From Terriglobia bacterium (GTDB lineage Bacteria > Acidobacteriota > Terriglobia > Terriglobales > Acidobacteriaceae): a DNA stretch of 46,262 nucleotides. Under the pieces are notes generated by a model that did not search any database, was not told the DNA's origin, and was given only the letters and a program-made list of their open reading frames with translations. Made by a program: the position numbers and the translations under genes. Location: contig JBGPJK010000001.1 in NCBI GenBank assembly GCA_041485425.1, positions 1 through 46,262 of the forward strand, in the 5' to 3' direction. Positions 14,103 through 38,565 of the stretch are shown here, piece after piece (the first letter of the stretch is position 1; each line of letters begins with the position of its first letter).

Positions 14103-14135
14103 AATCTGATACTCATTCCGGACAAAACCAGAGTG

Positions 14136-15934: not shown

Positions 15935-15949
15935 TGGCACGACGCTTGC
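15935..15949 (+). promoter_or_regulatory. sigma-54 (RpoN) -24/-12 promoter, exact consensus TGGCAC-N5-TTGC
   Basis: TGGCAC at 15935-15940, gacgc, then TTGC at 15946-15949. It lies in the intergenic region 17 nt before the first ATG (15966) of an operon that ends with a sigma-54 enhancer-binding protein. It is the only full match I found on either strand of the window. Confidence 0.7.
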
Positions 15950-15965
15950 CCTAGCTGATGTTGAG

Positions 15966-17219
15966 ATGGATATTCCCCGCGCCTCTGGAGCCAGGCAACG
16001 CCGCAAGCGGCAGATCCTCTACGCCGCCGCCGGGATCGCGCTGATTGCGCTGGTCACCATGGGCCTGTCGCGCCTGAAGCCGGCTGCCCCCACAGTGGAA
16101 CGATCCACCGTTTGGATCGACACCGTGAAGCGGGGACCCATGCTTCGGCAAGTCCGCGGGCTGGGCACGTTGGTTCCGGAAGAGATTCGCTGGATCCCGG
16201 CGGTTACCGAGGGGCGGGTCGATCGCATTCCGGTCCTTCCGGGAGCGGCGGTGAAGCCCGACACTATCCTGCTCGATCTCAGCAATCCGCAGTTGCAGCA
16301 GGAAGCGCTCGACGCCGAGTGGAAGCTGAAGGCGGCAGAAGCAGATTACAAGAACTTCGAAATGCAACTGGCCAGCCAGGTTCTGGCGCAGAAATCCGAA
16401 GCGGCCAAAGCAGAGTCGGAATACAGCCAGGCGAAGATGCAGGCCGATACCGATGCTGCCCTGCAGAAGCTGGGAGTGATTTCCGAAAACAGCTTGAAGG
16501 TCTCCACCACAAAGGAGCACGAGTCCGCCACCCGAAACCAGATTGAACACCAGCGGCTGGCCAACAGCGGTCAGGTACTGGAAGCCCAACTACAGGCGAA
16601 GCAAGCGGTAGTCGAACAGTTCCGGGCCCTGTCCCAACTCAAGCAATCCCAGCTCGCGGGTCTGCACGTACGCGCGGGCACCGACGGCGTCCTCCAGGAG
16701 CAGACCCTGAAAGTAGGGCAGTGGGTGACCCCCGGGACCACCCTGGCCAAGGTCGTCCAACCGCAGCGCCTGAAAGCTGAGTTGAAAGTTGCCGAAACCC
16801 AGGCCAAGGATATCCAACTCGGGCAGCCCGCCTCGGTTGACACCCATAACGGCGTGATCGCTGGTCACGTAACCCGCATTGATCCGTCTGTACAGAATGG
16901 CACCGTCACCGTCGACGTCGGCCTGGACGGCACGCTCCCGCAGGGTGCCCGGCCCGACCTCAGCGTGGACGGTACCATTGATCTGGAGCGCATCGCGGAC
17001 ATCCTGTATGTGGGCCGTCCGGCGTTTGGGCAGGAAAAGAGTACCGTCGGTCTTTTCAAGTTGGAGCCGGATGGCCAGACCGCCGTGCGCGCCCAGGTTC
17101 AACTGGGGCGCAGTTCAGTGAACACCGTCGAGATTTTGCAGGGATTGAAGGAAGGCGACCAGGTGATCTTGTCCGACATGTCGCGTTGGGACAACTTCGA
17201 TCGCGTTCGCCTGGATTGA
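15966..17219 (+). CDS. HlyD/MacA-family periplasmic adaptor (membrane fusion protein)
   Basis: 417 aa. N-terminal TM anchor (ILYAAAGIALIALVTMGL), lipoyl-like segments (VTEGRVDRIPVLPGAAVKPDTILLDLSNPQL...GVLQEQTLKVGQWVTPGTTLAKV), a long coiled-coil hairpin, and beta-barrel and membrane-proximal domains. Confidence 0.9.
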   Translation: MDIPRASGARQRRKRQILYAAAGIALIALVTMGLSRLKPAAPTVERSTVWIDTVKRGPMLRQVRGLGTLVPEEIRWIPAVTEGRVDRIPVLPGAAVKPDTILLDLSNPQLQQEALDAEWKLKAAEADYKNFEMQLASQVLAQKSEAAKAESEYSQAKMQADTDAALQKLGVISENSLKVSTTKEHESATRNQIEHQRLANSGQVLEAQLQAKQAVVEQFRALSQLKQSQLAGLHVRAGTDGVLQEQTLKVGQWVTPGTTLAKVVQPQRLKAELKVAETQAKDIQLGQPASVDTHNGVIAGHVTRIDPSVQNGTVTVDVGLDGTLPQGARPDLSVDGTIDLERIADILYVGRPAFGQEKSTVGLFKLEPDGQTAVRAQVQLGRSSVNTVEILQGLKEGDQVILSDMSRWDNFDRVRLD

Positions 17220-17250
17220 TCAAGCTTCCACCATCAGGAAAGGAGACCAG

Positions 17251-17949
17251 ATGAGCGATTCGGGCCAGTTGATCCGAATGGAAAACATCACCAAGGTTTT
17301 TTACACGGATGAGGTCGAGACCCACGCCCTCTCGGGGGTTCATCTGGAGATTGGCAAGGGAGAGTATGTCTCGATTGCCGGCCCTTCCGGTTCCGGCAAG
17401 TCCACGCTGTTGGCGCTGATCGGTCTGCTGGATTCCCCGACCGATGGCACCTATACGCTGAATTCCCATTCCGTTGCGCAACTCAACATCAGCGAGCGCT
17501 CCCGCATCCGTAACCGCGAGATCGGATTCATTTTCCAGAGCTTCAACCTTATCGGCGATCTCAATGTGTACGAGAACGTCGAACTGCCGCTGACCTATCG
17601 CGGCATGTCTTCGACCGAGCGCAAGACGCGGGTGCAGCAGGCGCTCGAACGCGTGGGAATGAACCACCGCACCAAGCACTATCCGTCGCAGCTTTCCGGA
17701 GGTCAGCAACAGCGGGTGGCGGTGGCTCGCGCTTTGGCGGGCAGTCCGTCCATCCTGCTGGCGGACGAACCCACCGGCAACCTGGACTCGCGCAACGCGG
17801 AAGCGGTGATGGACCTGCTGCGCGATCTGCACCGCGAAGGCGCCACCATCTGCATGGTTACTCACGATCCGCGCTTCGCCTCGCATGCCGAGCGCCAGAT
17901 TCACCTGTTTGACGGCCGCGTGGTGGAGGAGACGGTCGAGGTGAACTGA
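17251..17949 (+). CDS. ABC transporter ATP-binding protein (MacB/LolD-type), copy 1
   Basis: 232 aa. Walker A GPSGSGKST, signature LSGGQQQRVAVARAL, Walker B plus D-loop [13 protein letters not shown]-loop VTHD. SD AAAGGAG upstream. Confidence 0.93.
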   Translation: MSDSGQLIRMENITKVFYTDEVETHALSGVHLEIGKGEYVSIAGPSGSGKSTLLALIGLLDSPTDGTYTLNSHSVAQLNISERSRIRNREIGFIFQSFNLIGDLNVYENVELPLTYRGMSSTERKTRVQQALERVGMNHRTKHYPSQLSGGQQQRVAVARALAGSPSILLADEPTGNLDSRNAEAVMDLLRDLHREGATICMVTHDPRFASHAERQIHLFDGRVVEETVEVN

Positions 17950-18044
17950 TGGAAGAGTCCCGGTTCGCGGCGTTGGCGGCGATCACCTGACGTTGAGCAT
18001 CGGAACTGCGGGCCACACCGCAGCACTCCGCTACGAGAGAACTT

Positions 18045-20483
18045 ATGGACACTCTGCTTCAGGATATCCGCTACGGATTCCGCATTCTCGCGAAGTCGCC
18101 CGGCTTCGCCATCGTGGCCGTGATGACCCTGGCGCTCGGCATTGGCGCCAATACCGCCGTCTTCAGCGTGATGAATGCGGTCCTGCTCAATCCCAGCGGC
18201 GTTCCTCATCCCGACAGCGTGGTCGCTCTGCGCACCAGATACTCCGTGGGAGACCTCCAGAACATCAACCTCTCGCCGCCAGATTTCGGCGACGCCGTAG
18301 CAGGGAAAGAGGTCTTCACTTCGGCCGCAGTTCTTGCGGGGGCTGCCTTCAACTACAGCGGCAATGGGACGACGCCGGAGCGGCTGAACGGCGCCAAGGT
18401 CTCCTGGCAGTGGTTCGACGTGTTCTGGTCACGTCCTTTGCTCGGCCGTGTGTTTCGCTCTGAAGAAGATCAACCCGGGGCCGACCACGAGGTGGTGCTT
18501 TCCTATCTGACCTGGAAACGCCGGTTCGGCGGCGACCCCGACATCCTGGGACGCTCGCTGCTGTTGAACCAGGAGTCCTACCGGGTGATCGGCGTTATGG
18601 GTCCGGAGTTCAACTGGCCCAACCTGGCGGAGCTCTGGGTTCCGATCGCTTTGCCGCCCGGACGCTACTTCGACAGCAAGTTCCGCTATAACGAATATTT
18701 GTTCAGCGTGGCCCGTCTGCGTCCCGGAGTCACCCCGGCACAAGCGAGTTCCTATTTGCAGCTGCGGGCTGCGCAGCACATCGCGTCCGAGGGCCAGAAC
18801 AGTTACGGCCAGGCTTCCGGCTGGGGTATGTTCTGCATGCCGCTGGTGGAGTTTGTCGCGGGAAACCTGAACCGGCCGCTGCTGGTGCTGCTGGCCGCGG
18901 TGGGAATTGTGCTGCTGATTGCCTGCGCCAACATTGCTGGTTTGCAGCTGGCCCGCGCCTCGGCCCGACAACGAGAGGTCTCCATCCAGATCGCGCTGGG
19001 CGCAGGACGCAGACGCCTGGTGCAGCAGGCCCTGGTCGAAAGTCTGCTGCTGGCGGTGGCCGGAGTCCTGCTTGGCCTGGTGGTAGCCAAAACCGCGATT
19101 CCCCTGTTGTTGCTCCTAGCACCGGAAGGCCTGATGCAGAACGTTCAGGTGCATGTGGGCGGCATGGTGTTGCTGTTTGTTGCAGTTCTCGGAGGAGTCT
19201 GCGCTCTGCTATGTGGCGCCGCACCCGCCTGGCATATGACGCACGTGGAGTTCTACGAGGCGCTGAAGGAGGGCGGCCGCTCGGAGACTTCCAGCCACGG
19301 CCGGCAGCGCATGCGGTCTGCCCTGGTGGTTGGCGAGATCGCGCTCGCCATGGTGTTGTTGGTGGGCGCCGGACTTCTGCTGCGCAGCTTGCAGCAGCTC
19401 GAGCGGGTGGAGACCGGCTTCGATCCCCACGGTTTGATGTCCGCCACGTTGTCTCTCCCTTCCACCGTTTACAAGACCGACGAGCAACAGGCAGCCTTCT
19501 CGGTCGCCGCCGAGGAGCAGTTGAAGAACATACCGGGCGTAACCAGCGCTGCGATGGTTGATGCGCTGCCTTTCACCAACAACGGCGGAAGCGCGTCCTT
19601 CGAGATCGACGGCCGAACCCTGCCGCCCAACGATCCCGGCCCGCATGGCAACATCCGCCTGGTTTCCCCGGATTACTTCAAGACCTTGCGCATCCCGCTC
19701 ATGCGAGGCCGGGTGTTCACCTCTGAAGATCGCCTCAAGACTCAGTTGGTGACGGTGATCGATCAGACCTTGGCGCACCAGTATTGGCCGCATGAGGAGC
19801 CGATCGGTCAGCGCATTTCCTTTGGCGGAAACTCTCCGCGGATCACCATTGTGGGCGTGGTACAGCATGCCAAGAGTTCGTCTCTGGAGTCGGACACGAC
19901 TGAGGGTTTCTACTACCTGCCGTTGGCGCAGTCGCCCTCGCCGTCAGCCTCCATCGTGTTGCGTACCAGCAGTTCCCATCCCGAGATTCTGGCGGGCGCG
20001 ATGCAGTCTGCCATCCGCGCAGCGGACCCAAACCAGCCTCTTTATGATTTCAAGACCATGGAGCAGCGAGTCGATGACTCGCTGATGGGCCGCCGTTTTC
20101 TGGTGATTTTATTGTCGGTCTTCGCCGGACTGGCATTGTTGCTCGCGGCTCTCGGCCTCTATGGCGTGATCACCTACACGGTCCGGCTGCGCACCCGCGA
20201 ACTCGGCATCCGCATGGCGCTCGGCGCCCAGCCGGCGGATGTTCTGCGGTTGGTTCTCGGCAAAGGCGCGCGACTGGCCGCCGTCGGGCTGATTCTTGGG
20301 GTCGTCGCTACTTTCGCCCTCGGACGCTCGCTGTCGAGCTTACTTTTCCAGGTCACCCTGTTCAACCCAATCACGCTGGTACTGACCTCCCTAGTGCTGA
20401 CCTTCACCGTTCTGTTCGCCAGTTACCTGCCCGCGCGGCGCGCGGCGAAGGTCGATCCGGTAGTGGCTTTGCGCTACGAGTGA
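18045..20483 (+). CDS. ADOP-family duplicated FtsX/MacB-type ABC permease, copy 1
   Basis: 812 aa. N-terminus [21 protein letters not shown] plus TM1. Two repeats of a large periplasmic domain followed by an FtsX-type TM bundle. C-terminus [10 protein letters not shown]. This matches the TIGR03434 ADOP pattern as I remember it. Confidence 0.9.
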
Positions 20484-20487
20484 ACCT

Positions 20488-22938
20488 ATGGAAACGCTGC
20501 TCCAGGACATCCGCTACGGCTTCCGCATGCTGCGGAAAACCCCGGGCTTCACCGTGGTGGCAATCGTCACCTTGGCCCTGGGCATTGGCGCGAACGTCGC
20601 TATCTTCAGCTTTGTGGACGAACTTTGGTTACGCCCCATGCCAGTACCCCATGCCGATCAACTGGTGCGGATCTTCACCAGCAATCCCAGCAGCAAGGGA
20701 GAGATCGAACGGGGTTGGAACTCGTACCCGGATTTCGCCGACCTGCGCACCAGTGCCAAGACGCTTTCCGGAGTGGCGTTGATCGAGCGCCGTGGCGCCC
20801 TGTACGACGATGGCGTGCAGAACAACCTGGTGACCGCGGCAGTTCTCTCTGACAACTTTTTCGACGTTCTCCAGCCGGTGCCCGCCTTGGGAAGAACTTT
20901 TACTGAAAACGAACTCAAGAGCCCGCAGGCGCTGCCGGTCATGCTTAGCTATCCGTTCTGGCGCCGCCAGTTCGGAGGCGACGTTTCGCTGGTCGGGCGG
21001 ACCATCGTGGTGGACCGGCAGCAGGTTGCGGTGGTCGGCATTCTGCCCCGCGGATTTCGGGGCACCGAAGCCATGCAGGTGCCGGACCTGTGGATCCCCA
21101 TGACCACGTGGAGGCAGTTCGTTCCTGGCGACCAGCAGCGGCTGGTATCACGAGGCTTCCGCGACTACGAGTTGTTTGGGCGATTGCGGCCGGGCGTAAC
21201 CCTGCAACAGGCCGGCCTCGAACTCGGGGCTCTGGCGAACGCGCTTGCGCAAAGTTATCCGGATACGAACGTCGGCCGCAAGATGACCGTCGTGCCGGAA
21301 AACCAGACCCGCGGGGACTCGACCGCCATGGTCGGCTTTGTGCTGCTCGGGATCGCGGCGCTGGTACTGCTGATTGCCTGTGCCAACGTTGCCAGCCTGC
21401 TGCTCGCACGCGCCGAGCACCGTCGCAAGGAGATTGCCACCCGCGTGGCCTTGGGTGCGGTTCCCGGGCAGATCGTGCGTCAGTTGCTGACCGAGACCAT
21501 GTTGCTGACCGTCCTGGGGACGGCGGCGGCGCTGGCTTTCGGCAATCTTGTGCTCCAGTTGCTTCCTGTAGTGATGCCGCAAAGCAGCGTTGCAGCGGGA
21601 GTCGATGCTTACCTGAGCTTGCGTGGGTTCTTGTTCGCGATGGTCATCGCGGTGGTCTCGTTATTTCTCTTCGGACTTGCACCGGCTTTGCAGGCGTCCC
21701 GCGTGGCTCCGGCGCTGGCCCTCAAGCAATTTGGTGCGACCGGCGCTGCGGCGCGGAGGGGGTTCCGGAGCGTGCTGGTGGTGGCCCAGGTAGCCCTGTC
21801 GGTAGTCATGGTCGTGAGCGCCGGATTGCTGGTGCGCTCGGTGCTGAACGCGCTCAACTCGGACCCGGGTTTTAACGCCCACCAGAACATGCTGGTCTTA
21901 GAACTTGCGCCGGGTTTCGGCACCCGGAGTTCGCAGGATAGCTTGGCGTTTGTGCGCGAGGCGCGGCGGCGCTTGGAGGCTCTGCCGGGTGTGACTGCCA
22001 CCAGCATAGCCATGCGATTTCCCTTTGGCATGAGCGGCAGCGGCGCGACCCGCAAGGTCTTTCTTCTAGGAATCCCGGGTGCTGACGACCGTGAAGGCGT
22101 CACCATCAATTTTGATCCCGTCAGCGAGGGCTTCTTCGGCGTGTTGGGAACACGAATTCTGCGAGGTCGTGCCATCGAGGCCCACGATCTCGAGACCGGC
22201 GCTCACGTGACGGTCGTAAACCAGCGGATGGCCAGCCGCTTCTGGCCGAATGGCGACGCGGTGGGAAAAAGCATTCGCCTGGACAAACTGGATGGCGACG
22301 AGTACCAGGTGATCGGCGTCGCCGAGGTCAGCAAGTACAACGACTACCAGGAAGATCCCATGCCGTTTCTCTACGTTCCCATGCAGAGTGACGACTACGG
22401 CGAACTGGCGCTCGGGGTGAGCACCGGAATCGATCCAGGGACGCTGGCTATGACGGTACGGCGCACGCTGCGCGACATCAATCGCGAGGTGCCGATCCTC
22501 GGAATGCTCACCTGGCGAGACCAGATTCGCGAGGCGCTCTACGAACAAAGGATGACCGCGCGTCTGATCGTCGCTTTGGGCGGGCTGGGTCTGCTGCTGG
22601 CCGCCGTGGGCATCTATGGGCTCATGGCGTTTCTAGTGGCGCGGCGCACCCAGGAGATCGGAATCCGCCTGGCGCTCGGGGCACAGCGCAGCGCGATTCT
22701 CCGGCTGGTGATGCGACACGCGCTTGGACTGACTGCGGTTGGGCTGGCAGCCGGGATTCTGGGTTCGATCGCTGCGACCCGCGCGCTGCGCAGCTTCTTG
22801 TTCGGTGTGGCACCCACGGACGTGCTGGTCTTCGTGGGTGCCATAACGGTTCTACTGGTGGTGACTTTTGCGGCGACGCTGGTGCCTGCGATGAGGGCCA
22901 TCCGCGTTGACCCCATGGTGGCGCTGCGCTACGAGTGA
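20488..22938 (+). CDS. ADOP-family duplicated FtsX/MacB-type ABC permease, copy 2
   Basis: 816 aa. [21 protein letters not shown] ... [10 protein letters not shown]. There is a 4-nt gap to copy 1. Confidence 0.9.
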
Positions 22939-22941
22939 AAA

Positions 22942-25395
22942 ATGATGAATGGGTTCATACAAGACTTGCGTTATGCGTTCCGCTTATTACGGAAGAGGCC
23001 CGGCTTCTCGGCGGTTGCGATCCTGACGCTCACGCTCGGCATCGGCGCGACTACGGCCATTTTCAGCGTCGTGTATGGCGTGCTGCTGCGTCCCCTTCCA
23101 TACGAGAGACCGGACCAGATCGTGGATTTGCGGGAAGTCAATGCGCAGGGCCACCTCATGCAATTCGCAGATCCGAACTTTGAAGATGTGCGCGCGCAAA
23201 GCCGTTCTCTCCAGGCTCTCGCGGAATATAATGCCTGGACCTCATCAGTTTCGGGTGGCGCGCAGCCAACGCGCAGCATGCTCGCGGCTGTCTCCAAGGA
23301 CTTCTTCCCGGTGATGAGAGTTCAGCCCGTTCGAGGCCGCAGCTTCTTGCCGGAAGATCAGCGTTTCGGCGCGGCTCCAGTGGCGCTGGTAAGTTACGGA
23401 TACTGGCAGCAATTTCTGGGCGGAACTGCGGACCTGTCGGCGATCAAGCTAACCATTGAGAACCATTCTGCGTCGGTGATCGGCGTGCTTCCGCCCGCGT
23501 TCGACTTTCCATCCAACAGCGGAATCTGGGTGCCACGGGAGCTGTACGAGGAGTTGCCGAGCCGCACCGCTCACAACTGGCAGGTGGTTGGGCGCCTTCG
23601 GGACGGTGTATCGCTTGCTCAGGCCCGCAGCGAGCTGACAACGATCGCCCACAGGCTAAAACATCAATATGGGCAGGACACGATGATGACGAATGGGTCT
23701 CTCGTGCCGCTGCGTGACGCCCTGACAAGCAGCATTCGCCTCGGCTTAACGATTCTTCTTGGCGCCGTTGGCTTTCTGTTGCTGATCGCCTGCGCCAATG
23801 TCGCCAATCTGCTGCTTGCGCAAGGAGCGGCTCGGGAGAGGGAACTCGCAATCCGGACCGCCGTAGGTGCTGAGCGTGGCCGGCTCATTCGCCAGTTTCT
23901 CACCGAGGCCTTGCTGCTCTCGTTGGCGGGCGGGACGCTTGGCCTGATTGCCGCCGTCTGGGGAGTCCGTGCGCTGCTTGCCGTCGCACCCCACATGCTC
24001 CCGCGGCTGGAGGATGTAGGAATTAACTTCCCGGTGCTGCTGTTCGCGATGGCGATTGCGTGTCTGGTGGCGGCCGGGCTGGGCGTATTCACCGCGCTTC
24101 GCGCCACTTCACATGACGTGCAGCATTTCCTCGAAGGGACACGCTCGGGCACTTCCCGGGGAGGCGCGCAGCGCGCCAGCAGAACGATCATCGCCGGCCA
24201 AGTCGCAATTACGCTGGTTCTGCTGGTGGGTGCCGGACTTCTCGGACGAAGTCTGTTACGCGTGCTTTCGGTGGACCCCGGATTCCGTGCGGAACACGCT
24301 TTGACCGTGGATCTGGCTCTCGCGTCCCCCGAACACGACACCGACAAAGTTCAGCGTGTGCAGTTTCTGGATCAGTTGTTCTCCCGCCTGCGGGGAATTC
24401 CGGGCGTGGAAGAGGTCGGCGGCACTAGTGACTTGCCGCTCACCCAGAGCCTCTCTGACGGCATTTACCTCCTCATGAACCCGGGCGAGGAAACTCCCAC
24501 CGACATGAAGACGCTCGAACAGATGTTTCATGATCCCGACCGCACCGGCGACGCGGACTACGCTTCAGCGGACGGCGGCTATTTTCGCACGCTCGGAATT
24601 CCGCTGGTACGCGGACGCCTGTTCAACGACACCGACACAATGAACTCGCCGCACGTAGCCTTGATCAGCCAATCGCTGGCCAAGGAAAAGTGGCCCAACC
24701 AGGATCCCCTGGGTCGCCTGATCGAGTTCGGCAACATGGACGGCGACCTTCGACCCTTAACCGTGGTGGGAGTAGTCGGAGATGTGCATACCGCTGCTCT
24801 GGAACGCCCGGCCCGGCCGACCATTTACGTGGATTTTGCCCAGCGGCCACAGAGCACGGCGAACTTCGCGGTCGTCATGCGCACGGCGGCTGACCCAGCA
24901 GCCGTGATCGCGACGGCTCGCCAGATTGTCCGTGAGCTTGATCCTGATATTCCTCCGAAGTTTGAAACCTTCGATCAGGTTGTGTCCGCGTCCCTGAGCG
25001 CCAGGCGTTTCAATTTGCTGCTGGTGGGAATCTTCGCGGCAGCAGCTCTGCTACTCGCTATTGCGGGCATTTACGGAGTGACGGCTTATTCGGTCACGCG
25101 GCGCACCAGTGAAATCGGGGTTCGCATGGCCCTGGGCGCCACCCCGGCCGGGGTTTTGCGCCTGGTTTTGGGACAAGGGATGCTGGTGATTTCAGCCGGC
25201 GTGATTGCCGGTCTCCTCGGCTCGCTGGCCCTGACTCGCACCATGAATTCGCTGCTATTCGGCTTGACCGCAACTGACCCAATAACGTTTGCTGCGGTCG
25301 TTGTGTTGTTGATTCTGGTAGCGCTGGTCGCCTGTTACATCCCCGCACGCCGCGCCGCCAAAGTCGATCCCATGGTCGCCCTGAGGTACGAGTGA
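22942..25395 (+). CDS. ADOP-family duplicated FtsX/MacB-type ABC permease, copy 3
   Basis: 817 aa. MMNGFIQDLRYAFRLLRKRPGF ... [10 protein letters not shown]. There is a 3-nt gap to copy 2. Confidence 0.9.
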   Translation: MMNGFIQDLRYAFRLLRKRPGFSAVAILTLTLGIGATTAIFSVVYGVLLRPLPYERPDQIVDLREVNAQGHLMQFADPNFEDVRAQSRSLQALAEYNAWTSSVSGGAQPTRSMLAAVSKDFFPVMRVQPVRGRSFLPEDQRFGAAPVALVSYGYWQQFLGGTADLSAIKLTIENHSASVIGVLPPAFDFPSNSGIWVPRELYEELPSRTAHNWQVVGRLRDGVSLAQARSELTTIAHRLKHQYGQDTMMTNGSLVPLRDALTSSIRLGLTILLGAVGFLLLIACANVANLLLAQGAARERELAIRTAVGAERGRLIRQFLTEALLLSLAGGTLGLIAAVWGVRALLAVAPHMLPRLEDVGINFPVLLFAMAIACLVAAGLGVFTALRATSHDVQHFLEGTRSGTSRGGAQRASRTIIAGQVAITLVLLVGAGLLGRSLLRVLSVDPGFRAEHALTVDLALASPEHDTDKVQRVQFLDQLFSRLRGIPGVEEVGGTSDLPLTQSLSDGIYLLMNPGEETPTDMKTLEQMFHDPDRTGDADYASADGGYFRTLGIPLVRGRLFNDTDTMNSPHVALISQSLAKEKWPNQDPLGRLIEFGNMDGDLRPLTVVGVVGDVHTAALERPARPTIYVDFAQRPQSTANFAVVMRTAADPAAVIATARQIVRELDPDIPPKFETFDQVVSASLSARRFNLLLVGIFAAAALLLAIAGIYGVTAYSVTRRTSEIGVRMALGATPAGVLRLVLGQGMLVISAGVIAGLLGSLALTRTMNSLLFGLTATDPITFAAVVVLLILVALVACYIPARRAAKVDPMVALRYE

Positions 25396-25396
25396 T

Positions 25397-27817: not shown

Positions 27818-27855
27818 CCCCGGGGGTTCGAAGCCCTTTGCGTGAGGTCCAAACC

Positions 27856-28572: not shown

Positions 28573-28577
28573 CCGGC

Positions 28578-31001: not shown

Positions 31002-31030
31002 AGCAGCTGGGGCAAATCGAACAGGAGCTT

Positions 31031-33529
31031 ATGCACACAGTCATACGTGATCTTCGCTATGGCGCCAGGATGCTGGTCAAGAATCCCGGCTTCACCCTGA
31101 TTGCGGTCCTCACACTGGCTCTCGGCATCGGGGCGAACACGGCAATTTTCTCGCTCGCCGACCAGGTTCTGCTGCGCTATCTTCCGGTGCCACATCCCGA
31201 GGAACTTGTCCTGTTACGATCGCCGGGCCCCAGTCCCGGAAACGTCAACAGCGATTTAGACGAGGCCGCGTCTTTCTCCTATCCGATTTACAAAGACCTC
31301 CGCGATCAGAACCAGGTTTTCACCGGGCTCCTGACGCGCTACGCCATCGGAGTGAGCTTGGCGGGCGGCTCGCAGATCGAACGCGCCCGGGGGGAACTGG
31401 TCTCGGGCAATTATTTCGATGTCCTTGGCGTCCGCCCGGCATTGGGACGCGTCTTCTCCGCCCAGGATGAAACCGCGCCGGGAGCGAACCCGGTCGCGGT
31501 CTTGAGTTACGGCTACTGGCAGCGGCGTTTCGCCGGCAATCCTGGCATTCTCAATCAGACCCTCACTGTGAATGGAACTCCCCTTACGGTTGTGGGGGTC
31601 TCGAGTCCGGGCTTCGCCGGCGTGCAGGTTGGGCAAGTCCCCGATGTGTTCATTCCCATCACCATGAAGGCGCAGATGATGCCCAACACCAGCGAGCTGG
31701 ACAATCGATCCGACGCCTTTCTGGCTTTGCTTGGGCGCTTGAAACCAGGGTTGACGCTGGCCCAGGCGCAGGCGGGCCTGCAGCCGGTCTATCGCCAGAT
31801 TCTGCAAGCCGAGGTACCGCTGCGCAAAATCTCTCAGACAAGACAGGCGGAGTTTCTCGCCAAACCGCTTCTGCTTGAAACCGGCTCCCATGGCCGCCAG
31901 ATTCTGCAGCATGACGCGCGAGCGCCCCTGCTGACTCTCATGGCGATGGTCGGCTTGGTGCTGCTGATCACCTGTGCCAACCTGGCCAGCCTTCTGATCG
32001 CACGCGGAGTGGCGCGGCGGCGCGAGATTGCCGTCCGCATGGCGCTCGGCGCCGATCGCTGGAAGATTGTGCGCCAGCTCCTGGCCGAACCTCTCCTCTT
32101 GTCTGTGGCGGGCGGGGTGGTGGGCCTGATGCTGGGTTCCTGGGCGCTTGCAGCCATTGTGCGCGCCATCCCGTCCGACATCGGCGCCACGGGCCTGAAC
32201 CCTACTCTCGACTGGCGTGTGCTGGTATTTACTTTTGGCGTGTCGCTCCTGGCCGGCCTTCTGTTTGGATTGGCTCCGGCCTTCAGCAGCGCGCGCGTGG
32301 AATTGGCCGACAGCCTGAAGGAGCAGACTTCCACGGGCAATCTGGCTCGCGTCCGGCTGCGCCGTGCACTCATCGTCGCGCAAGTTGCTTTGACCACCGT
32401 GCTGCTGATTGGGGCCGGTCTGTTTGCGCATAGCCTCTACAACCTCAAGACTGTGGACCTCGGCGTCCGTCCCGATCACGTCATCCAGTTCTCGGTCGCA
32501 CCCGAACTGGATCGCTATTCTCCCGCCCAGACCCGCGCCCTGGCGGATCGCATCCGCGACACCATCGCCGTGATGCCGGGTGTCCAGGCGGTGAGCGCTG
32601 CTGCGATTCCGGTGTTCCAGAACAGCGATGCCGGCTCCAACATCACCGTCGAAGGCTACACTTTCGCTCCGAATGAGGAGCCCCATGTGCTGAAGAACTG
32701 GATTGCGGCAAGGTACTTCGGCACCATGGGCACACCCCTGCTGGAAGGCCGCGAATTTACCGAGGCCGATACCTCTCAAAGCCCCGAGGTGGCCATCATC
32801 AACGAAAGCGTGGCCCGGCGCTTCTTCACTGGGCGCGACCCTCTGCAGTATCGCTTGGTCTTCGGCGCCGGCAAGGACGTGCATCCCGATATTCAGATTG
32901 TCGGTGTGGTCAAGGACAGCAAGCATGAAGACCCGCGCGACCCCATTCACCCGTTTGTCTATCTTCCCCTCGCCCAGTTGAAGGACCTTGGCCGGGCGAC
33001 CTTCTACGTGCGTACTGCGCAGGATCCGGGCGTGATGAGCGATGCAGTTCGCAAGTCGGTTGCGTCCATCGATGCCAGCCTGCCCATCTACGATCTGAAG
33101 ACGCTCACCGCACAAATAAATGAGTCTCTATTCACCGACCGTCTGGTGGCATTTCTCTCGGTGGGTTTGGGATTGCTATCCGCGTTGCTGGCAGCGATGG
33201 GACTGTACGGAGTGATGGCGTACACCGTGGCTCGCCGTATCCGTGAAATCGGCATTCGCATGGCGCTGGGAGCCACGCGGGAAGGCGTGGCCTGGATGGT
33301 GTTGCGCGAGGTGGTGCGCATGGCCGCCCTCGGGCTGCTCATCGGAGTGCCCGTAGCTTTTGCCGTCGGGCGCTTCGCGGAAGCGACCCTCTATGGCGTG
33401 AAAGCAGGCGATCCGCCGGCCTACGCCCTGGCCGCCGTCTTTCTGGGTGTGCTGGCCCTGCTGGCAGGCTCGTTGCCCGCCCGCCGCGCCACCGCGGTCG
33501 ATCCCATGGTGGCGCTGCGTTACGAGTAG
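31031..33529 (+). CDS. ADOP-family duplicated FtsX/MacB-type ABC permease, copy 6
   Basis: 832 aa. MHTVIRDLRYGARMLVKNPGF ... [15 protein letters not shown] lies upstream of the ATG. Confidence 0.9.
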   Translation: MHTVIRDLRYGARMLVKNPGFTLIAVLTLALGIGANTAIFSLADQVLLRYLPVPHPEELVLLRSPGPSPGNVNSDLDEAASFSYPIYKDLRDQNQVFTGLLTRYAIGVSLAGGSQIERARGELVSGNYFDVLGVRPALGRVFSAQDETAPGANPVAVLSYGYWQRRFAGNPGILNQTLTVNGTPLTVVGVSSPGFAGVQVGQVPDVFIPITMKAQMMPNTSELDNRSDAFLALLGRLKPGLTLAQAQAGLQPVYRQILQAEVPLRKISQTRQAEFLAKPLLLETGSHGRQILQHDARAPLLTLMAMVGLVLLITCANLASLLIARGVARRREIAVRMALGADRWKIVRQLLAEPLLLSVAGGVVGLMLGSWALAAIVRAIPSDIGATGLNPTLDWRVLVFTFGVSLLAGLLFGLAPAFSSARVELADSLKEQTSTGNLARVRLRRALIVAQVALTTVLLIGAGLFAHSLYNLKTVDLGVRPDHVIQFSVAPELDRYSPAQTRALADRIRDTIAVMPGVQAVSAAAIPVFQNSDAGSNITVEGYTFAPNEEPHVLKNWIAARYFGTMGTPLLEGREFTEADTSQSPEVAIINESVARRFFTGRDPLQYRLVFGAGKDVHPDIQIVGVVKDSKHEDPRDPIHPFVYLPLAQLKDLGRATFYVRTAQDPGVMSDAVRKSVASIDASLPIYDLKTLTAQINESLFTDRLVAFLSVGLGLLSALLAAMGLYGVMAYTVARRIREIGIRMALGATREGVAWMVLREVVRMAALGLLIGVPVAFAVGRFAEATLYGVKAGDPPAYALAAVFLGVLALLAGSLPARRATAVDPMVALRYE

Positions 33530-33562
33530 AAATCGATCCTGGTACGGAGCTGCGGGAGACTA

Positions 33563-35542
33563 ATGAGCAGAAAAAACCGTGTCGAGTTCGAGCTGCGCCG
33601 TGGGATTGGCTCAGCTCTCCGGGCTGGTGTCCTTGTGTCGTTGTGGGCTGCGATTGCCGTTGCACAATCGGTGCCCGCCTACGTAAAACCAGCCTCCCAT
33701 TTTCCCAACTTGATCGGGCCATACATCGCCCGCCAGGTTCCAGAGCCCACGTTCGGCAATACGCCGCGCCTGGAGACTCTCATGAAGGACGGCAAGCTCA
33801 TGCTATCGCTCAGCGATGCCGTCACCCTGGCGTTGGAGAACAATCTCGATCTGGCCATCGCCCGCTACAACCTCAACATTGCGGATACCGACATCCTGCG
33901 TGCCAAGTCGGGTGCGAGCGTGCGCGGAGTGGCTACGGGACTGGTGCAGGGCACGCCCGGCGGTGGCATCGGCGGCTTCGGCACCGGCGCGTCCGGCGCC
34001 GGAGCCGGGGGCACCACTGGCGGAGCCGGCGGCGCGGGCACCGGAGCCTCCGGTCTGGTGGAGTCCACCCTCGGAACCGGAGCGCCGGTTGACACCTACG
34101 ATCCAATCTTGAATGCCGGTCTCAGGATCGAGCACGGCACTTTTCCCCTCTCCAGCAACGTGCTCAGTGGACAAGTCCCCTTCTTGCAGCAGAATCTGGG
34201 AATCGCGAACTTCAACTATTTCCAGGCCTTCCGTTCCGGCACCAGCATGTCGGTTGATTTCGACAACTCCCGGAGCACCGACAATACAACCACCAGCACT
34301 CTGGTGCCGCAGGTGCAGTCCGGCTTTCGTTTTACCCTGCGACAGCGGCTCCTCTCCGGTTTCGGCCTTGGACCGAACACACGGTTCATTCGCATCGCGC
34401 ACAACAACCGCGAAATCTCTGACGTTGCCTTCCGCAATCAGGTGATCGCGACGGTGTCGCAGATCCAGAACATCTATTGGGACCTGGTCAACGCCTACGA
34501 GGACGTGAGAGTCAAAGAGCGTTCCCTGGCGCTTGCCGATAAAACCCTCTCCGACGATCGCGAGCAGGTGAAGCTTGGAGCACTGGCGCCCATCGAAGTC
34601 TTGCGCGCAGAGAGCGAAGTAGCAGCCCGCAACCAGGACCTCCTGCTTTCGCAGAACGAGTTGCAGTTGCAGGAATTGCTCATCAAGAACGCAATCACCC
34701 GCGATTTGAGCGACCTGGTGGTGGCTTCGGCGCCGGTCGTGCCCACCGATACCATGAGCATCTCCGAGCAGGAAGCGGTGACGCCGGTGCAGGATCTGAT
34801 CGGAGATGCGCTCTCCCACCGTCCTGAACTCGCGGAGGCTCGCATTGATCTTCATAACCGCGACCTCAGCCGCAAAGCCACGGCGAACGCCATGTTGCCT
34901 ACCATGGATCTCATCGCCTGGTACGGGGCTTCTGGAATTGCGGGTGAGCAGAACCTGAACAACACCAGCTTGCCGCCAGGTACGATTTCACGCTCGGGGT
35001 TCCCCAATGCCTTCGCGACCCTGTTCCGAAACGATTTTCCCGACTACGCCATCGGTCTGAACATCACCATCCCGCTGCGCAACCGGGCCGCACAGGCTGA
35101 CGAAATACGGTCCCAGTTGGAGTACCGCCAGGCGCAACTTCGTCTGCAACAATTGCAGAACCAGATCGGGATCGAAGTCCGCAATGCGCAGTTTGCCCTG
35201 CAGCAGAATCGGGCCCGGGTCAACACTTCCCGCAAGGCGCGCGAACTGGCGCGGCAGACCCTGGAAATCGAGCAGAAAAAGTATGGCCTCGGCGCCTCCA
35301 CCAGCTACCAGGTTCTGCAATTCCAGAGAGATCTGGCGCAGGCCGAGTCGAACCTGGTGACGGCCATGTCGGCCTACGAGAAATCGCGCGTCGAGCTGGA
35401 TCGCGTCACCGGCTTGACCCTGTCCCATAGCGGCATCGAACTCCAGGACGCCGAGAGCGGCCATGTTGGGGTCGTTCCCAGCCTGCCTGGTGTGGCTCCA
35501 CGGTCCGACCCTCCTTCTATCGAAGGGCCGCCTCCGAGTTAG
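33563..35542 (+). CDS. TolC-family outer-membrane efflux duct with Gly-rich insert
   Basis: 659 aa with a signal peptide (VLVSLWAAIAVAQS). LSLSDAVTLALENNLDLAIARYNLNIADTDILRAK is the canonical TolC/OEP N-terminal helix. A second OEP repeat is present (IEVLRAESEVA..., YEKSRVELDRVTG). A Gly-rich low-complexity segment spans aa ~121-175. Confidence 0.9.
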   Translation: MSRKNRVEFELRRGIGSALRAGVLVSLWAAIAVAQSVPAYVKPASHFPNLIGPYIARQVPEPTFGNTPRLETLMKDGKLMLSLSDAVTLALENNLDLAIARYNLNIADTDILRAKSGASVRGVATGLVQGTPGGGIGGFGTGASGAGAGGTTGGAGGAGTGASGLVESTLGTGAPVDTYDPILNAGLRIEHGTFPLSSNVLSGQVPFLQQNLGIANFNYFQAFRSGTSMSVDFDNSRSTDNTTTSTLVPQVQSGFRFTLRQRLLSGFGLGPNTRFIRIAHNNREISDVAFRNQVIATVSQIQNIYWDLVNAYEDVRVKERSLALADKTLSDDREQVKLGALAPIEVLRAESEVAARNQDLLLSQNELQLQELLIKNAITRDLSDLVVASAPVVPTDTMSISEQEAVTPVQDLIGDALSHRPELAEARIDLHNRDLSRKATANAMLPTMDLIAWYGASGIAGEQNLNNTSLPPGTISRSGFPNAFATLFRNDFPDYAIGLNITIPLRNRAAQADEIRSQLEYRQAQLRLQQLQNQIGIEVRNAQFALQQNRARVNTSRKARELARQTLEIEQKKYGLGASTSYQVLQFQRDLAQAESNLVTAMSAYEKSRVELDRVTGLTLSHSGIELQDAESGHVGVVPSLPGVAPRSDPPSIEGPPPS

Positions 35543-35553
35543 GACAATCAGCC

Positions 35554-36969
35554 ATGGGAGTGAACAGCGTAGAATTCATGAGCCAAGTAACCGTGATGAC
35601 TGCCACCAGCAACCCTCGAGTGTTGATCGCTGATGACCAGCGCGACGTGCTGGAAGCCTTGCGCCTTCTGCTCAAGCGCGAGGGATTCACCATTGAGACC
35701 ACGGCCTCTCCCGCGGGCGTTCTCGACGCGCTGCAATCGCGCGAATTCGACGCCGCCCTCATTGACCTGAACTATGCCCGCGATACCACGTCCGGCCAGG
35801 AAGGCCTGGACTTGCTTTCGCGTATCCAGGGGATTGACAGCACCCTTCCCGTGATCGTGATGACGGCCTGGGGCAGTGTGGATGTGGCGGTCGAAGCCAT
35901 GCGGCGCGGCGCCCGCGACTTCATCCAGAAACCCTGGGAAAATGCGCGTTTGCTGGCGGTGTTGCGAACCCAAATCGAACTCAGCGGCGCAGTGCGTCGC
36001 AGCCAGCAACTGGAAGCCGAGAACCGCCTCTTGCGCGCCGAGGGATCCCCTTCCTTCATTGCCGAAGCCGAAGTCATGCAGCCGGTTTTGCGCCTCATCA
36101 GCAAGGTCGGCCCTTCCGACGCCAACGTTCTCATCACCGGCGAGCACGGCAGCGGCAAGGAAGTGGTCGCGCGCACCCTGCATGCGCTTTCCAAGCGCGC
36201 TTCGCGTCCCCTCGTAACCGTCAACACGGGCGGGCTCTCGGAAGGAATCTTTGAGAGTGAGCTCTTCGGCCACGTGCGCGGCGCGTTCACCGACGCCAAA
36301 AGCGACCGCATCGGGCGCTTCGAGTTGGCCCATGGCGGAACTCTTTTCCTCGACGAAATCGCCAACGTTCCGCTATCGCAACAGGCCAAATTGCTGCGCG
36401 TGCTGGAAATTGGCGAAATGGAACGGGTGGGTTCTTCCCGCACCCTGCGCGTCGACGTGCGCATTATTTCCGCCACCAATGCCGACCTGGACAAGGAGAC
36501 TGCCTCGGGCCGCTTCCGCCAGGACTTGCTGTTCCGCCTGAACACGGTGGAGATCCACCTCCCGCCGCTGCGGGAACGGCGGCGCGACATTCCCGTGCTC
36601 GCCATGCACTTCCTGAAGCGTTACGCCGACCGCTATCGCAAGCCCACCTCGAACTTTGACCCGGCGGCAATGCAATTGATGCTGGATTACGCCTGGCCCG
36701 GCAATGTCCGCGAACTTGATCACTCGGTCGAGCGCGCGGTTCTGCTGGCGCAAGGGGACGCGGTGCAGGTCAGCGATCTTGGCCTGCGTGAAAGCCGTGA
36801 AACCATGCCGAAAATGGAAGACCTGAGCCTGGAAGAAGTCGAGTCCCTGCTGGTTCGCAAGGCGATCGACCGTTACGCAGGTAATATTAGCCAGGCGGCA
36901 GAAGCGTTGGGACTGAGCCGCAGTGCGCTCTACCGGCGCCTGCAGAAATATGGAATCGGCAGCACTTAA
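35554..36969 (+). CDS. sigma-54-dependent response regulator (NtrC/AtoC-type enhancer-binding protein)
   Basis: 471 aa. Receiver domain (VLIADDQRDVLEAL...DAALIDLNY...VIVMTAWG). AAA+ domain with Walker A GEHGSGKE, the sigma-54 contact loop GAFTDA, and FLDEI. C-terminal Fis-type HTH (ISQAAEALGLSRSALYRRLQKYGI). Alternative starts are at 35578 and 35596. Confidence 0.92.
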   Translation: MGVNSVEFMSQVTVMTATSNPRVLIADDQRDVLEALRLLLKREGFTIETTASPAGVLDALQSREFDAALIDLNYARDTTSGQEGLDLLSRIQGIDSTLPVIVMTAWGSVDVAVEAMRRGARDFIQKPWENARLLAVLRTQIELSGAVRRSQQLEAENRLLRAEGSPSFIAEAEVMQPVLRLISKVGPSDANVLITGEHGSGKEVVARTLHALSKRASRPLVTVNTGGLSEGIFESELFGHVRGAFTDAKSDRIGRFELAHGGTLFLDEIANVPLSQQAKLLRVLEIGEMERVGSSRTLRVDVRIISATNADLDKETASGRFRQDLLFRLNTVEIHLPPLRERRRDIPVLAMHFLKRYADRYRKPTSNFDPAAMQLMLDYAWPGNVRELDHSVERAVLLAQGDAVQVSDLGLRESRETMPKMEDLSLEEVESLLVRKAIDRYAGNISQAAEALGLSRSALYRRLQKYGIGST

Positions 36970-38362
36970 ACCACGGCAGCAGGGAACCGCGGCCCCGATC
37001 ATTCCGGGAGGCCAGTCGCAAGTCTCTGTTCGACGGAAGCCCAAACGCCGTTTAAGCCACGAAAACAGGGTCCTGCTGCTTGCCTTGGCCGCCGGAATTC
37101 CCGGCTTCCTGGTCTCCGTCATCCTGCTTTGGACCGGCGATTACACCGATAGCACCAGGTGGACGCTCACCGCCCTGATCGTGATGGTCTGGCTCGGCTT
37201 CGCATTTTCCGTGCGCTCCACCGTGATCCGGCCGCTGCAGACGCTCTCCAACATGCAATCCGCCTTGCGCGAAGGAGACTTCTCCTTCCGGGTGCGTGGC
37301 GCGAGTTCGAGCGACGCCCTCGGCGAGCTCATGCTCGAGGTGAACACCCTTTCGCAGATGTTGCGCGAGCAGCGGCTCGGCGCCATGGAGGCCAGCGCCC
37401 TTCTCTCCACGGTCATGACGGAGATCGACGTCGCGGTCTTTGCTTTCGATGGCCAGCATCGGCTGCGGCTGGTCAACCGCGCCGGCGAACGGCTCCTCGC
37501 TCAACACACCGAGCGGCTCCTGGGCAAGACGGCGGACGAACTGGGCATGGCGGATTGTCTGGAAGGAGAGTCAGCCCGCACCCTGGAGCGAAATTTCCCT
37601 GGGATTTCCGGGCGCTGGGGCATGCGGCGAACCACCTTCCGCCAGGGCGGCGTGCCGCACTACCTGGTAGTTCTGACCGACTTGAGTCGTACCCTGCGTG
37701 AAGAGGAAAGGCAAGCCTGGCAGCGCCTGGTGCGCGTACTCGGACATGAACTGAACAATTCTCTGGCTCCCATCTGCTCCATCGCCGGCAGCCTCGAGGA
37801 TATCGTGAAGCGCGAATCCCGGCCCTCCGATTGGGAAGAAGACCTGCGGCGTGGCTTGCGCGTGATCGCTGAGCGATCGGAAGCCCTGGGCCGGTTCATG
37901 AAGGATTACGGTCGCCTCACGCGTCTTCCGAAACCACAACTCCGCCCGGTAGCGGTCGGTGCGCTGATCAACGCCGCGGTAGGACTGGAACGGAGAATGG
38001 CGATTGAGTTGGCGCCCGGGCCTGAACTGATGGTCGAAGCTGATCCCGACCAGTTGCAGCAACTCCTGATCAATCTCATCCGCAATGCCGTGGATGCATC
38101 GCTCGAGACCGGCGGCAGTGTCCGCATTGGCTGGACGAAAAACGGGAACACGGTCAACATCAGTGTCCAGGACCAAGGCCCAGGGATCGCCAATTCCGCT
38201 AATTTGTTCGTGCCGTTTTTCACCACCAAGCCGGGCGGATCGGGCATCGGCCTGGTGCTGAGCCGGCAAATTGCCGAAGCCCACGGCGGCAGCCTCACGG
38301 TGGCCAACCGTCCCGCGCAACGCGGGTGTGAGGCCAGCCTGCAACTGCCGCTGCGGCCTTGA
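36950..38362 (+). CDS. sensor histidine kinase (2 TM, HAMP, PAS-like, HisKA, HATPase_c; NtrY-like architecture)
   Basis: The ATG at 36950 overlaps the regulator gene by 20 nt (the ORF opens at a GTG at 36923). The TM pair is followed by a HAMP (IRPLQTLSNMQSALREGDFSF...LGELMLEVNTLSQML). H-box LGHELNNSLAPI, N-box LINLIRNAVDA, G-boxes DQGPGI and GGSGIGL. Confidence 0.88.
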   Translation: MESAALKPRQQGTAAPIIPGGQSQVSVRRKPKRRLSHENRVLLLALAAGIPGFLVSVILLWTGDYTDSTRWTLTALIVMVWLGFAFSVRSTVIRPLQTLSNMQSALREGDFSFRVRGASSSDALGELMLEVNTLSQMLREQRLGAMEASALLSTVMTEIDVAVFAFDGQHRLRLVNRAGERLLAQHTERLLGKTADELGMADCLEGESARTLERNFPGISGRWGMRRTTFRQGGVPHYLVVLTDLSRTLREEERQAWQRLVRVLGHELNNSLAPICSIAGSLEDIVKRESRPSDWEEDLRRGLRVIAERSEALGRFMKDYGRLTRLPKPQLRPVAVGALINAAVGLERRMAIELAPGPELMVEADPDQLQQLLINLIRNAVDASLETGGSVRIGWTKNGNTVNISVQDQGPGIANSANLFVPFFTTKPGGSGIGLVLSRQIAEAHGGSLTVANRPAQRGCEASLQLPLRP

Positions 38363-38556: not shown

Positions 38557-38565
38557 TCTGTAGGA

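Follow-up and report, generated by a model that had tools for sequence, protein, structure and literature searches.

What are six membrane permeases of a family called "orphan" doing in one gene cluster with two ATPases? The question is raised by a stretch of 46,262 nucleotides (hereafter, the window) that covers positions 1 to 46,262 of contig JBGPJK010000001.1 from a Terriglobia bacterium of the phylum Acidobacteriota. One cluster in the window encodes six permeases of the ADOP family (TIGR03434), a periplasmic adaptor, two ABC ATPases, a TolC-family duct, and a sigma-54 two-component pair. On balance, we favor the view that this cluster is a single sigma-54-dependent operon for an inducible tripartite pump of the type VII class, in which a constant chassis is combined with exchangeable permeases. 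Few paralogous families of membrane proteins in Acidobacteriota, a dominant soil phylum, are as large as the ADOPs, and the operon gives them a first working context that comprises an adaptor, two ATPases, a duct in some lineages, and a sigma-54 two-component switch.

A constant chassis with exchangeable permeases

The open reading frame (ORF) listing places 12 ORFs, all on the + strand, between positions 15966 and 38362. The first encodes a membrane-fusion protein (MFP), the periplasmic adaptor (417 amino acids; 15966–17219), and the second encodes the ABC ATPase designated ATPase-1 (232 amino acids; 17251–17949). Beyond a 95-nucleotide spacer (17950–18044) lie the genes for four ADOP permeases: P1 (812 amino acids; 18045–20483), P2 (816 amino acids; 20488–22938), P3 (817 amino acids; 22942–25395), and P4 (806 amino acids; 25397–27817). 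ATPase-2 contains 238 amino acids when read from the ATG of 27856–28572; an alternative TTG start at 27838 yields 244 amino acids. The remaining genes encode permeases P5 (807 amino acids; 28578–31001) and P6 (832 amino acids; 31031–33529), a TolC-family outer-membrane factor (OMP; 659 amino acids; 33563–35542), an NtrC-type sigma-54 enhancer-binding response regulator (EBP; 471 amino acids; 35554–36969), and a histidine kinase (HK; 470 amino acids from the ATG of 36950–38362, with a longest ORF that starts at GTG 36923). Domain searches confirm this order, which had been proposed in the original prediction. The same prediction counted thirteen genes; we count 12. The 95-nucleotide gap is neither an ORF nor a stable RNA structure (z = −1.1, not significant) and contains the relic of an ADOP 3′ end, not a thirteenth gene. 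Intergenic gaps in the cluster range from −47 to 33 nucleotides, with the spacer before P1 as the sole exception. The earlier statement that all other gaps are 33 nucleotides or less is correct, except that the gap before ATPase-2 measures 38 nucleotides if translation starts at ATG 27856, the choice of gene callers. GC content is uniform along the cluster. Matches to sigma-70-like promoters and terminators inside the cluster are not clearly above shuffled expectation, although such pattern scans are weak evidence in an acidobacterium, and we rejected a split of the operon at internal elements of this kind. Because the gaps are tight, the junctions are conserved, and the internal matches do not clearly exceed shuffled expectation, the cluster probably forms one transcript.

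Each of the six permeases contains two MacB_PCD and two FtsX domains (Pfam). All pass TIGR03434 (ADOP family duplicated permease), which has a curated cutoff of 622.3 bits, with 815–985 bits over profile positions 1–803 (938.8, 815.1, 881.6, 957.9, 984.6, and 943.6 bits for P1 to P6, respectively). Searches with these three profiles therefore place all six in the predicted family. The N- and C-terminal halves of the ADOPs are 26–28% identical, which points to an internal duplication, and hydropathy analysis reveals eight transmembrane (TM) helices per chain. A single-chain AlphaFold2 model of P5 (pLDDT 81.6, pTM 0.74) likewise has eight TM helices, arranged as two TM-PCD-3TM units that are joined by a direct linker between TM4 and TM5. 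The model also has a helix at each terminus, of which the N-terminal one is amphipathic, and short helices within the TM2-3 and TM6-7 loops. When the P5 model was compared with the PDB by Foldseek, type VII ABC permeases were among the significant top matches. Escherichia coli YbbP is the only full-length match (9ge6_A, E = 1e-19, TM-score 0.44), and MacB, Spr0695, LolC/E, BceB, HrtB, and YtrF match per half or partially. The nearest solved structures by sequence are MacB proteins; no solved structure of an ADOP family member was found. According to this model, an ADOP would be a single-chain, pseudo-dimeric type VII permease that resembles MacB and YbbP. The paired domains, the eight TM helices, the P5 model, and the fold matches all agree with the fused pseudo-dimer that had been predicted.

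P1–P6 are mutually 35–43% identical and belong to separate orthologue lineages. We therefore rejected a recent tandem duplication as the source of the array; the six proteins appear to be old paralogues. P2 has orthologue-level matches in L084 and L043, P3 in L022 and L030, and P6 in L045 and L060 (L numbers designate loci compared with the window), while P5 has more than 100 orthologue clusters at 65–76% identity. The periplasmic domains are the most divergent part of the six paralogues, with 29–30% identity. Identity among the cytoplasm-facing segments is 60% in the N-terminal helix, 53% in the TM2-3 loop, 59% in the TM6-7 loop, and 76% in the C-terminal tail (53–77% when TM1 is taken together with these segments). 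Conservation of the cytoplasmic segments is expected if all ADOPs dock onto the same ATPases. The family as a whole is large: a single search returned 75,612 representative clusters at 50% identity with E ≤ 1e-30. A sizeable subset of these representatives (e.g., P0248, P0257, P0258, and P0269) measures 870–890 amino acids and carries an N-terminal extension of ~70–85 residues before the conserved N-terminal helix.

A comparison of related loci separates the constant from the variable parts of the operon. We scanned a genome collection with P4 as query, which yielded 37 loci, all at paralogue-level identity, and metagenomes with the MFP as query, which yielded at least 570 relatives. The same module, consisting of MFP, several ADOPs, ATPase-1, an ADOP, ATPase-2, EBP, and HK, occurs in 10 acidobacterial genome loci. 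Metagenome contexts contain the same chassis with one to at least six ADOPs in varied gene orders (two in L067, six in L047), and the number of ADOPs per related operon ranges from one to seven overall; in L020, from Vicinamibacterales, a single ADOP lies between the two ATPases. The operon family is real and widespread in Acidobacteriota, and the architecture, which had been put forward as singular, proves common in the neighborhoods surveyed in acidobacterial metagenomes. We designate as chassis the MFP, the two ATPase orthogroups, the EBP, and the HK, with the duct as a further component in some lineages. These chassis proteins have one-to-one orthologues that are 49–79% identical across orders. 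Most ADOPs of the relatives match those of the window only at 39–48%, and orthologues of P1, P2, P5, and P6 occur sporadically, at differing positions in the arrays.

The closest relative, L042, encodes an MFP that is 98% identical to that of the window; the corresponding values are 97% for ATPase-1, 94% for ATPase-2, 92% for EBP, and 87% each for OMP and HK. L042 contains three ADOPs, of which P1 alone (88% identity) is common to both arrays. Homology at the DNA level (blastn) extends through MFP, ATPase-1, P1, and the first ~120 nucleotides of P2, where it is interrupted; it returns at ATPase-2 and once more at OMP-EBP-HK. Between the two arrays, gene-junction regions match one another at 72–85%. 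The last ~22 nucleotides of the 95-nucleotide spacer (18023–18044, ending in CGCTACGAGAGAACTT) constitute the relic of an ADOP 3′ end together with a gene junction. This relic resembles the inter-permease junctions that read CGCTACGAGTGA-N3-ATG, and blastn homology to an ADOP/ADOP junction of L042 begins at 18023. A 51-codon ORF at 6637–6792 of L042 is likewise an ADOP 3′-end relic (LRYE-stop followed by a junction). Both relics resemble scars left where a cassette was deleted or inserted. Because the chassis of L042 is 87–98% identical, only one ADOP is shared, and the breakpoints fall at gene junctions, the permease set appears to be exchanged by recombination that breaks at gene junctions, while the chassis appears to be inherited vertically. 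The pattern of breakpoints derives from this comparison between genomes. Junction-driven recombination within the window's own array is unsupported; nucleotide identity between paralogues peaks at ~65% at the gene ends, which is too low for such recombination to be efficient. The proposal that interchangeable permease modules share common components gains comparative support from the recurrence of the chassis with one to seven ADOPs and from the single ADOP that L042 shares with the six of the window.

These contexts bear on the name of the family. "Orphan" presumably referred, when the name was given, to the absence of an adjacent ABC ATPase gene. The array of the window itself contains two ABC ATPase genes, and an ATPase is encoded within 10 kb in 12 of the 37 ADOP loci of the genome-contig sample. 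The term fits many ADOPs, such as those in ATPase-free arrays of the genome sample, some of which are located behind PadR regulators (L024 and L034), yet it does not describe a property of the whole family. The co-location of ADOPs and genes for ATP-binding transporters had been recorded before in Psychroflexus torquis, in which an island that combines about ten ADOP paralogues with such genes shows high expression of its proteins (PMC3914696). Outside Acidobacteriota, too, duplicated permeases of the FtsX/MacB type form arrays with an ATPase. In L041, from Aestuariibaculum sediminum, a divergent HK-EBP pair accompanies an MFP, two permeases, one visible ATPase, and a third permease. L037, from a metagenome-assembled genome (MAG) of Pseudomonadales, contains eight tandem duplicated permeases followed by one visible ATPase.

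The MFP matches HlyD_3 and HlyD_D23, passes TIGR01730 (RND_mfp) with 108.9 bits against a cutoff of 94.9, and contains a single N-terminal TM helix (residues 17–35). It has one-to-one orthologues in all related operons, and conservation of their N-termini (MDIPRASGARQ in the window versus MDIQRPSNARA) confirms the assigned start codon. The OMP contains two OEP domains, a signal peptide, and a Gly-rich insertion, and its scores against the TolC and NodT subfamilies fall under cutoff. An N-terminal extension was considered and rejected, since the extra length is accounted for by the Gly-rich insertion, which follows the first helices, and by a tail at the C-terminus. Homologues of the OMP with 70–89% identity are abundant in MAGs of Terriglobales and Terriglobia. 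Its position (ADOPs-OMP-EBP-HK) is identical in all three contexts examined (L042, L043, and L045) and likewise in L046 and L047. By their domain matches, the MFP, the two ATPases, and the OMP make up the complete set of adaptor, ATPase, and duct that had been predicted.

Promoter, upstream palindrome, and regulatory pair

A perfect sigma-54 −24/−12 promoter, TGGCACGACGCTTGC (TGGCAC-GACGC-TTGC), occupies 15935–15949 on the + strand, 16 nucleotides before the ATG of the MFP gene; no other perfect match to TGGCAC-N5-TTGC occurs in the 46-kb window. Sites of the form GG-N10-GC occur upstream of the MFP gene in genome loci of several acidobacterial orders, and a perfect sigma-54 site lies 14 nucleotides before the ATG in L047. 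Among metagenome loci, 52 of 73 have, within the 120 upstream nucleotides, a site with a score of 7/10 or higher, as compared with 18% of control windows. In loci of the Terriglobales type (including L048–L084), the site ends 13–18 nucleotides before the ATG; in more distant relatives, this distance is 21–28 nucleotides or more. The spacing suggests a nearly leaderless transcript with a 5′ untranslated region of a few nucleotides and no Shine-Dalgarno sequence. A direct repeat, GTTGCTGGCA, is present at 15888–15897 and 15930–15939, 42 nucleotides apart, with an overlap between its downstream copy and the −24 element. We considered the upstream copy as a second sigma-54 promoter and rejected it; this copy contains TGGCA without a −12 TTGC at the right spacing.

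A candidate enhancer, or upstream activating sequence (15827–15862, + strand), precedes the −24 element by ~90 nucleotides. Its two parts are the palindrome TGTCTG-TTTT-CGAACA (15827–15842, + strand) and a second block, TTCCCACGAACGGACA (15847–15862, + strand). In 26 of 33 related loci, the 16-bp palindrome, with consensus TGTYCG-N4-CGRACA (searched as TGTNNG-N4-CGNACA), precedes the ATG of the MFP gene by 126–142 nucleotides, and in one more by 200 nucleotides; its background frequency is 0.027 per kb. The second block (YTCCC..GA...ACA) follows the palindrome by ~20 nucleotides in 25 of the 33 loci (116–122 nucleotides before the ATG in 24 and 180 nucleotides before it in one). Other acidobacterial classes have a related block, TGTCCG...TGGGAC-N7-TTCCCA. 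The distance between palindrome and promoter is typical for an enhancer; the palindrome is a candidate binding site for the operon's own EBP.

The EBP contains Response_reg, Sigma54_activat (213 bits), AAA_lid_14, and HTH_8 domains. Its sigma-54 contact loop (residues ~243–248) reads GAFTDA instead of GAFTGA. The same variant is found in all 11 EBPs of ADOP operons that were examined, including that of the flavobacterial locus L041, while the unrelated EBP of L020 has GAFTGA. GAFTDA is listed among the variants of the GAFTGA motif that are compatible with activity (PMC4641369). Sigma-54 control, a central element of the original prediction, is upheld by the perfect −24/−12 element, its positional conservation, the conserved upstream sequence, and the intact AAA+ module of the EBP; rpoN itself is not within the window. 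The HK matches HATPase_c and, weakly and below threshold, PAS_4. It contains two TM helices connected by a loop of ~10 residues, a topology that is conserved in nine orthologues (loops of 8–12 residues). After the TM helices, a HAMP-like segment, a weak PAS domain, a DHp domain, and the CA domain can be recognized by eye. The prediction that the system regulates itself through this pair agrees with the window, in which EBP and HK are encoded inside the operon; it does not extend to the whole family, for the pair lies outside the transporter transcript in L124 and L041.

The proposed pump and its rivals

How might two ATPases serve six permeases? Both ATPases match ABC_tran and resemble MacB, LolD, and DarD. 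The best NCBIfam matches of ATPase-1 are DarD, LolD, and the MacB nucleotide-binding domain (NBD), and DarD tops the list for both proteins. They are 44% identical to each other and form separate orthogroups; orthologues of ATPase-1 are ~76% identical across orders. The Walker A motif, the Q-loop, the LSGGQ signature, the Asp-Glu of Walker B, and the His of the H-loop are intact in both. Differences between the two appear in the D-loop, which reads GNLD in all 66 ATPase-1 orthologues and GNLH, with His in place of Asp, in all 29 ATPase-2 orthologues, and in the H-loop (THD in ATPase-1, THS in ATPase-2). No acidobacterial operon in the sample lacks either orthogroup, regardless of its number of ADOPs, and this holds also for three that contain a single visible ADOP (L020, L104, and L126). 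Because both ATPases co-occur even with one ADOP and the D-loop His is fixed in ATPase-2, the most economical reading of the sequences is that ATPase-1 and ATPase-2 form an obligate heterodimer on each pseudo-heterodimeric ADOP. This co-occurrence also speaks against the earlier idea that a ratio of six permeases to two ATPases is a design feature. If confirmed, the pair would give the type VII/MacB class its first heterodimeric NBD motor.

In comparing the operon with known systems, we noticed similarities to several of them. MacAB-TolC of E. coli, A. baumannii, and A. actinomycetemcomitans shares with the window the units of four TM helices and a periplasmic core domain, the MacB/LolD-like NBD, and a TolC-family duct that is encoded together with an HlyD-family adaptor. 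In MacB, NBD and permease are fused in one chain that forms a homodimer, whereas the window combines a fused 8-TM chain with two kinds of separate NBD. MacAB-TolC has one permease where the window has six alternatives, and control in the window is by sigma-54 and a two-component system. The ADOPs lack an NBD, and window proteins score 87–137 bits against the MacB equivalog NF007826 (cutoff 966). We propose by analogy that the system may work like a MacAB-TolC pump. YbbAP(-TesA) of E. coli likewise has a single-chain duplicated permease of the FtsX/MacB type with two periplasmic domains and a separate ATPase. YbbP and the ADOP are only 14% identical, so that the similarity is one of fold; ADOPs score ~22 bits against the YbbP equivalog NF041854 (cutoff 999), and YbbP has two extra linking TM helices, for a total of 10 (PMC5985334), compared with eight in P5. 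YbbA is a homodimer, in contrast to the two kinds of ATPase in the window, and the partner of YbbAP is the hydrolase TesA, not an MFP/TolC pair (PMC12646458).

The darobactin exporter DarBCD, as defined in NCBIfam, resembles the window in its duplicated permease of ~777 amino acids (DarB), its adaptor (DarC), and its ATPase (DarD). Scores of the window proteins are 18–29 bits against NF038008 (DarB), 62 bits against NF038010 (DarC), and 245–267 bits against NF038007 (DarD), for which the cutoffs are 700, 450, and 375. DarBCD has one permease and one ATPase inside a biosynthetic cluster for a ribosomally synthesized and post-translationally modified peptide, and the window contains no such cluster. 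BceAB-BceRS of Firmicutes couples a type VII transporter to a 2-TM kinase with a minimal extracytoplasmic loop, as the window does, and BceB is among the structural matches of P5. BceB spans the membrane with 10 TM helices and has a single extracellular domain; Bce modules use a regulator of the OmpR type. Bce modules lack an adaptor and a duct; the window has an 8-TM ADOP as permease and an NtrC-type EBP as regulator. Flux sensing through the transporter, as in Bce systems, may be considered for the window by analogy. "Orphan" ADOP arrays belong to the same family and are commonly tandem, and their classic contexts are without ATPases; what sets the window type apart is a defined chassis (MFP, two ATPases, EBP, and HK), to which some lineages add TolC. 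The system thus falls outside MacB, YbbP, DarBCD, LolCE, and Bce modules.

In the mechanism that we favor, each ADOP would be a complete permease of the form 2 × (TM-PCD-3TM), probably energized by one ATPase-1 and one ATPase-2 in a heterodimeric motor with asymmetric ATP sites and capped by an MFP hexamer and the TolC-family duct. The six ADOPs would compete for the common motor, adaptor, and duct, which would create alternative MacAB-TolC-like pumps whose divergent periplasmic domains confer differing substrate ranges. Substrates would most likely leave from the periplasm or from the outer leaflet of the inner membrane. The most plausible class is that of amphipathic compounds that are antimicrobial or noxious in some other way, because of the analogy to MacB and Bce systems, the inducibility, and the turnover of cassettes. 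The short-loop HK, which is without a periplasmic sensor domain, may sense a membrane-level or transporter-linked signal and phosphorylate the EBP; phosphorylated EBP would then bind the upstream palindrome and activate the sigma-54 promoter. Because EBP and HK would be part of the same transcript, transcription of the whole operon should produce positive feedback and hence self-amplifying induction. It is tempting to extend this scheme to a shared engine for a hypervariable system of specificity cassettes. The NBD heterodimer, adaptor, and duct would load any of many ADOPs, perhaps also dozens of genomic "orphan" ADOPs in trans; strains would exchange cassettes by recombination at the conserved junctions between genes, and the short-loop kinase would read transporter activity through Bce-like flux sensing to drive sigma-54 induction. 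We advance this extension tentatively and regard it as rather doubtful; if true, the huge ADOP family would represent a diversifying repertoire for envelope defense.

Several observations weigh against the reading that we favor. Solved type VII transporters all carry homodimeric NBDs, even those in which the permease is fused or heterodimeric, such as YbbAP, BceAB, and LolCDE (PMC5985334), and heterodimeric NBDs are unprecedented in the class. Both ATPases look catalytically competent, which makes two homodimers possible, and the operons with one ADOP are compatible with use of the ATPases by ADOPs encoded elsewhere. Several related operons (L008–L015) contain no TolC gene, so the duct cannot count as obligatory to the module. 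The proximity of the promoter to the ATG requires the assumption of an unusually short leader, and the left arm of the window palindrome departs from the consensus at two positions. The identity of the substrates is purely inferred.

Could the cluster instead encode two parallel pumps, in which ATPase-1 homodimers drive one subset of ADOPs (e.g., P1–P4), ATPase-2 homodimers drive another (P5 and P6), and the adaptor and duct alone are shared? The window's arrangement, with an ADOP block after each ATPase gene, would suit such a division, and so would the complete catalytic motifs of both ATPases and the homodimeric NBD pair of every structurally solved relative. Gene order varies, however: in L046 and L047, ATPase-2 comes after all ADOPs, and in L103 and L104 the genes for the two ATPases lie side by side. 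The operons with a single visible ADOP still keep both ATPases, and a D-loop substitution fixed in ATPase-2 alone fits an obligate asymmetric pair better than self-pairing. We consider the two-pump arrangement unlikely. Improbable to a similar degree is a device for extraction, trafficking, or secretion rather than detoxifying efflux, comparable to YbbAP-TesA, LolCDE, PvdRT, or DarBCD, which handle hydrophobic molecules or lipids, lipoproteins, and the cell's own peptides or siderophores. YbbP is the best full-length structural match of P5, and YbbAP extracts hydrophobic compounds from the inner membrane (PMC12646458). DarD is the best NCBIfam match of both ATPases, the MFP aligns end to end, albeit weakly, with DarC, and the high conservation and abundance of the operon in Terriglobales would suit a housekeeping function in the envelope. 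Yet the scores for the DarB, DarC, DarD, YbbP, and LolCE equivalogs are all far under their cutoffs, and neither the operon nor the conserved parts of related loci contain biosynthetic genes, a TesA-like hydrolase, or a LolA-like partner. Tight control by sigma-54 and a two-component system, together with rapid ADOP turnover between near relatives, fits an inducible, environment-facing function better.

We find it very improbable that the array is largely redundant, with one or two ADOPs as partners of the chassis and the others either drifting duplicates or proteins that function independently of it, like "orphan" ADOPs. It is true that ADOPs are often found without neighboring ATPases, in arrays or behind PadR (L005–L007, L017, L019, L023, L024, L028, and L034), and that ADOP content differs between close relatives. 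Fragmented ADOP ORFs also occur in some related arrays (L009, L032, and L040), but these come from MAG assemblies, in which frameshift errors are a plausible cause. The six ADOPs of the window are intact, full-length, and above the family cutoff, and all have retained the conserved cytoplasmic docking segments. They are old paralogues by their divergence rather than recent copies, and for P1, P2, P5, and P6 at least, other genomes contain well-conserved orthologues.

We found no functional study of ADOPs (TIGR03434), or of a MacB-type operon under sigma-54 control, in the searchable literature, in line with the original prediction, which knew of no characterized system of this architecture. 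Beyond earlier description, the present analysis adds that cassettes are exchanged in the course of evolution, that the motor is probably heterodimeric, and that a sigma-54 promoter and its candidate enhancer can be pinpointed. If confirmed, the operon would represent a modular pump in which substrate-facing permeases are swapped between close relatives while motor, adaptor, and regulator stay fixed. Such a pump would be relevant to the intrinsic antimicrobial tolerance and the chemical ecology of soil bacteria.

Neighboring genes

A complete pqq operon follows the HK gene at 38480–41595 of the window, and the same neighborhood is found in L042. The pqqA gene (38480–38557) encodes MKWTVPQFEEVALNCEINSYASAAL, which contains the E-x3-Y motif; the products of pqqB (38566–39489), pqqC (39471–40232), and pqqE (40507–41595) each pass an NCBIfam equivalog cutoff, and a gap the size of pqqD separates pqqC from pqqE. 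Upstream of the transporter operon and divergent from it, genes for an MFS_3 (EntS-like) transporter and a lactonase-like beta-propeller protein lie on the − strand at 12426–15344. MFS_3 and beta-propeller genes also precede the operon in L046 (1608–5238), where the propeller gene is co-oriented with it, and are absent upstream in other relatives. A functional link of the operon to the MFS_3/beta-propeller or pqq genes was rejected as weak; synteny is seen in L042 and L046, not in L043 and L045.

Downstream of pqq, at 41946–44592, is an OmpR-type pair that is unrelated to the sigma-54 pair; a regulator with Response_reg and Trans_reg_C domains is followed by a HAMP-HisKA-HATPase kinase, with an overlap of 29 nucleotides between the genes. 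In the distal upstream part of the window, a BlaI-like repressor (Penicillinase_R; 5882–6295) precedes a BlaR1-like M56 peptidase/sensor (6303–7724), after which lies an HtrA-type protease with a Trypsin_2 and two PDZ domains (7810–9375). Farther upstream, a CHASE2-domain adenylate/guanylate cyclase (2675–4600) is followed by a DUF928 protein (4597–5388), and the two genes overlap by four nucleotides.

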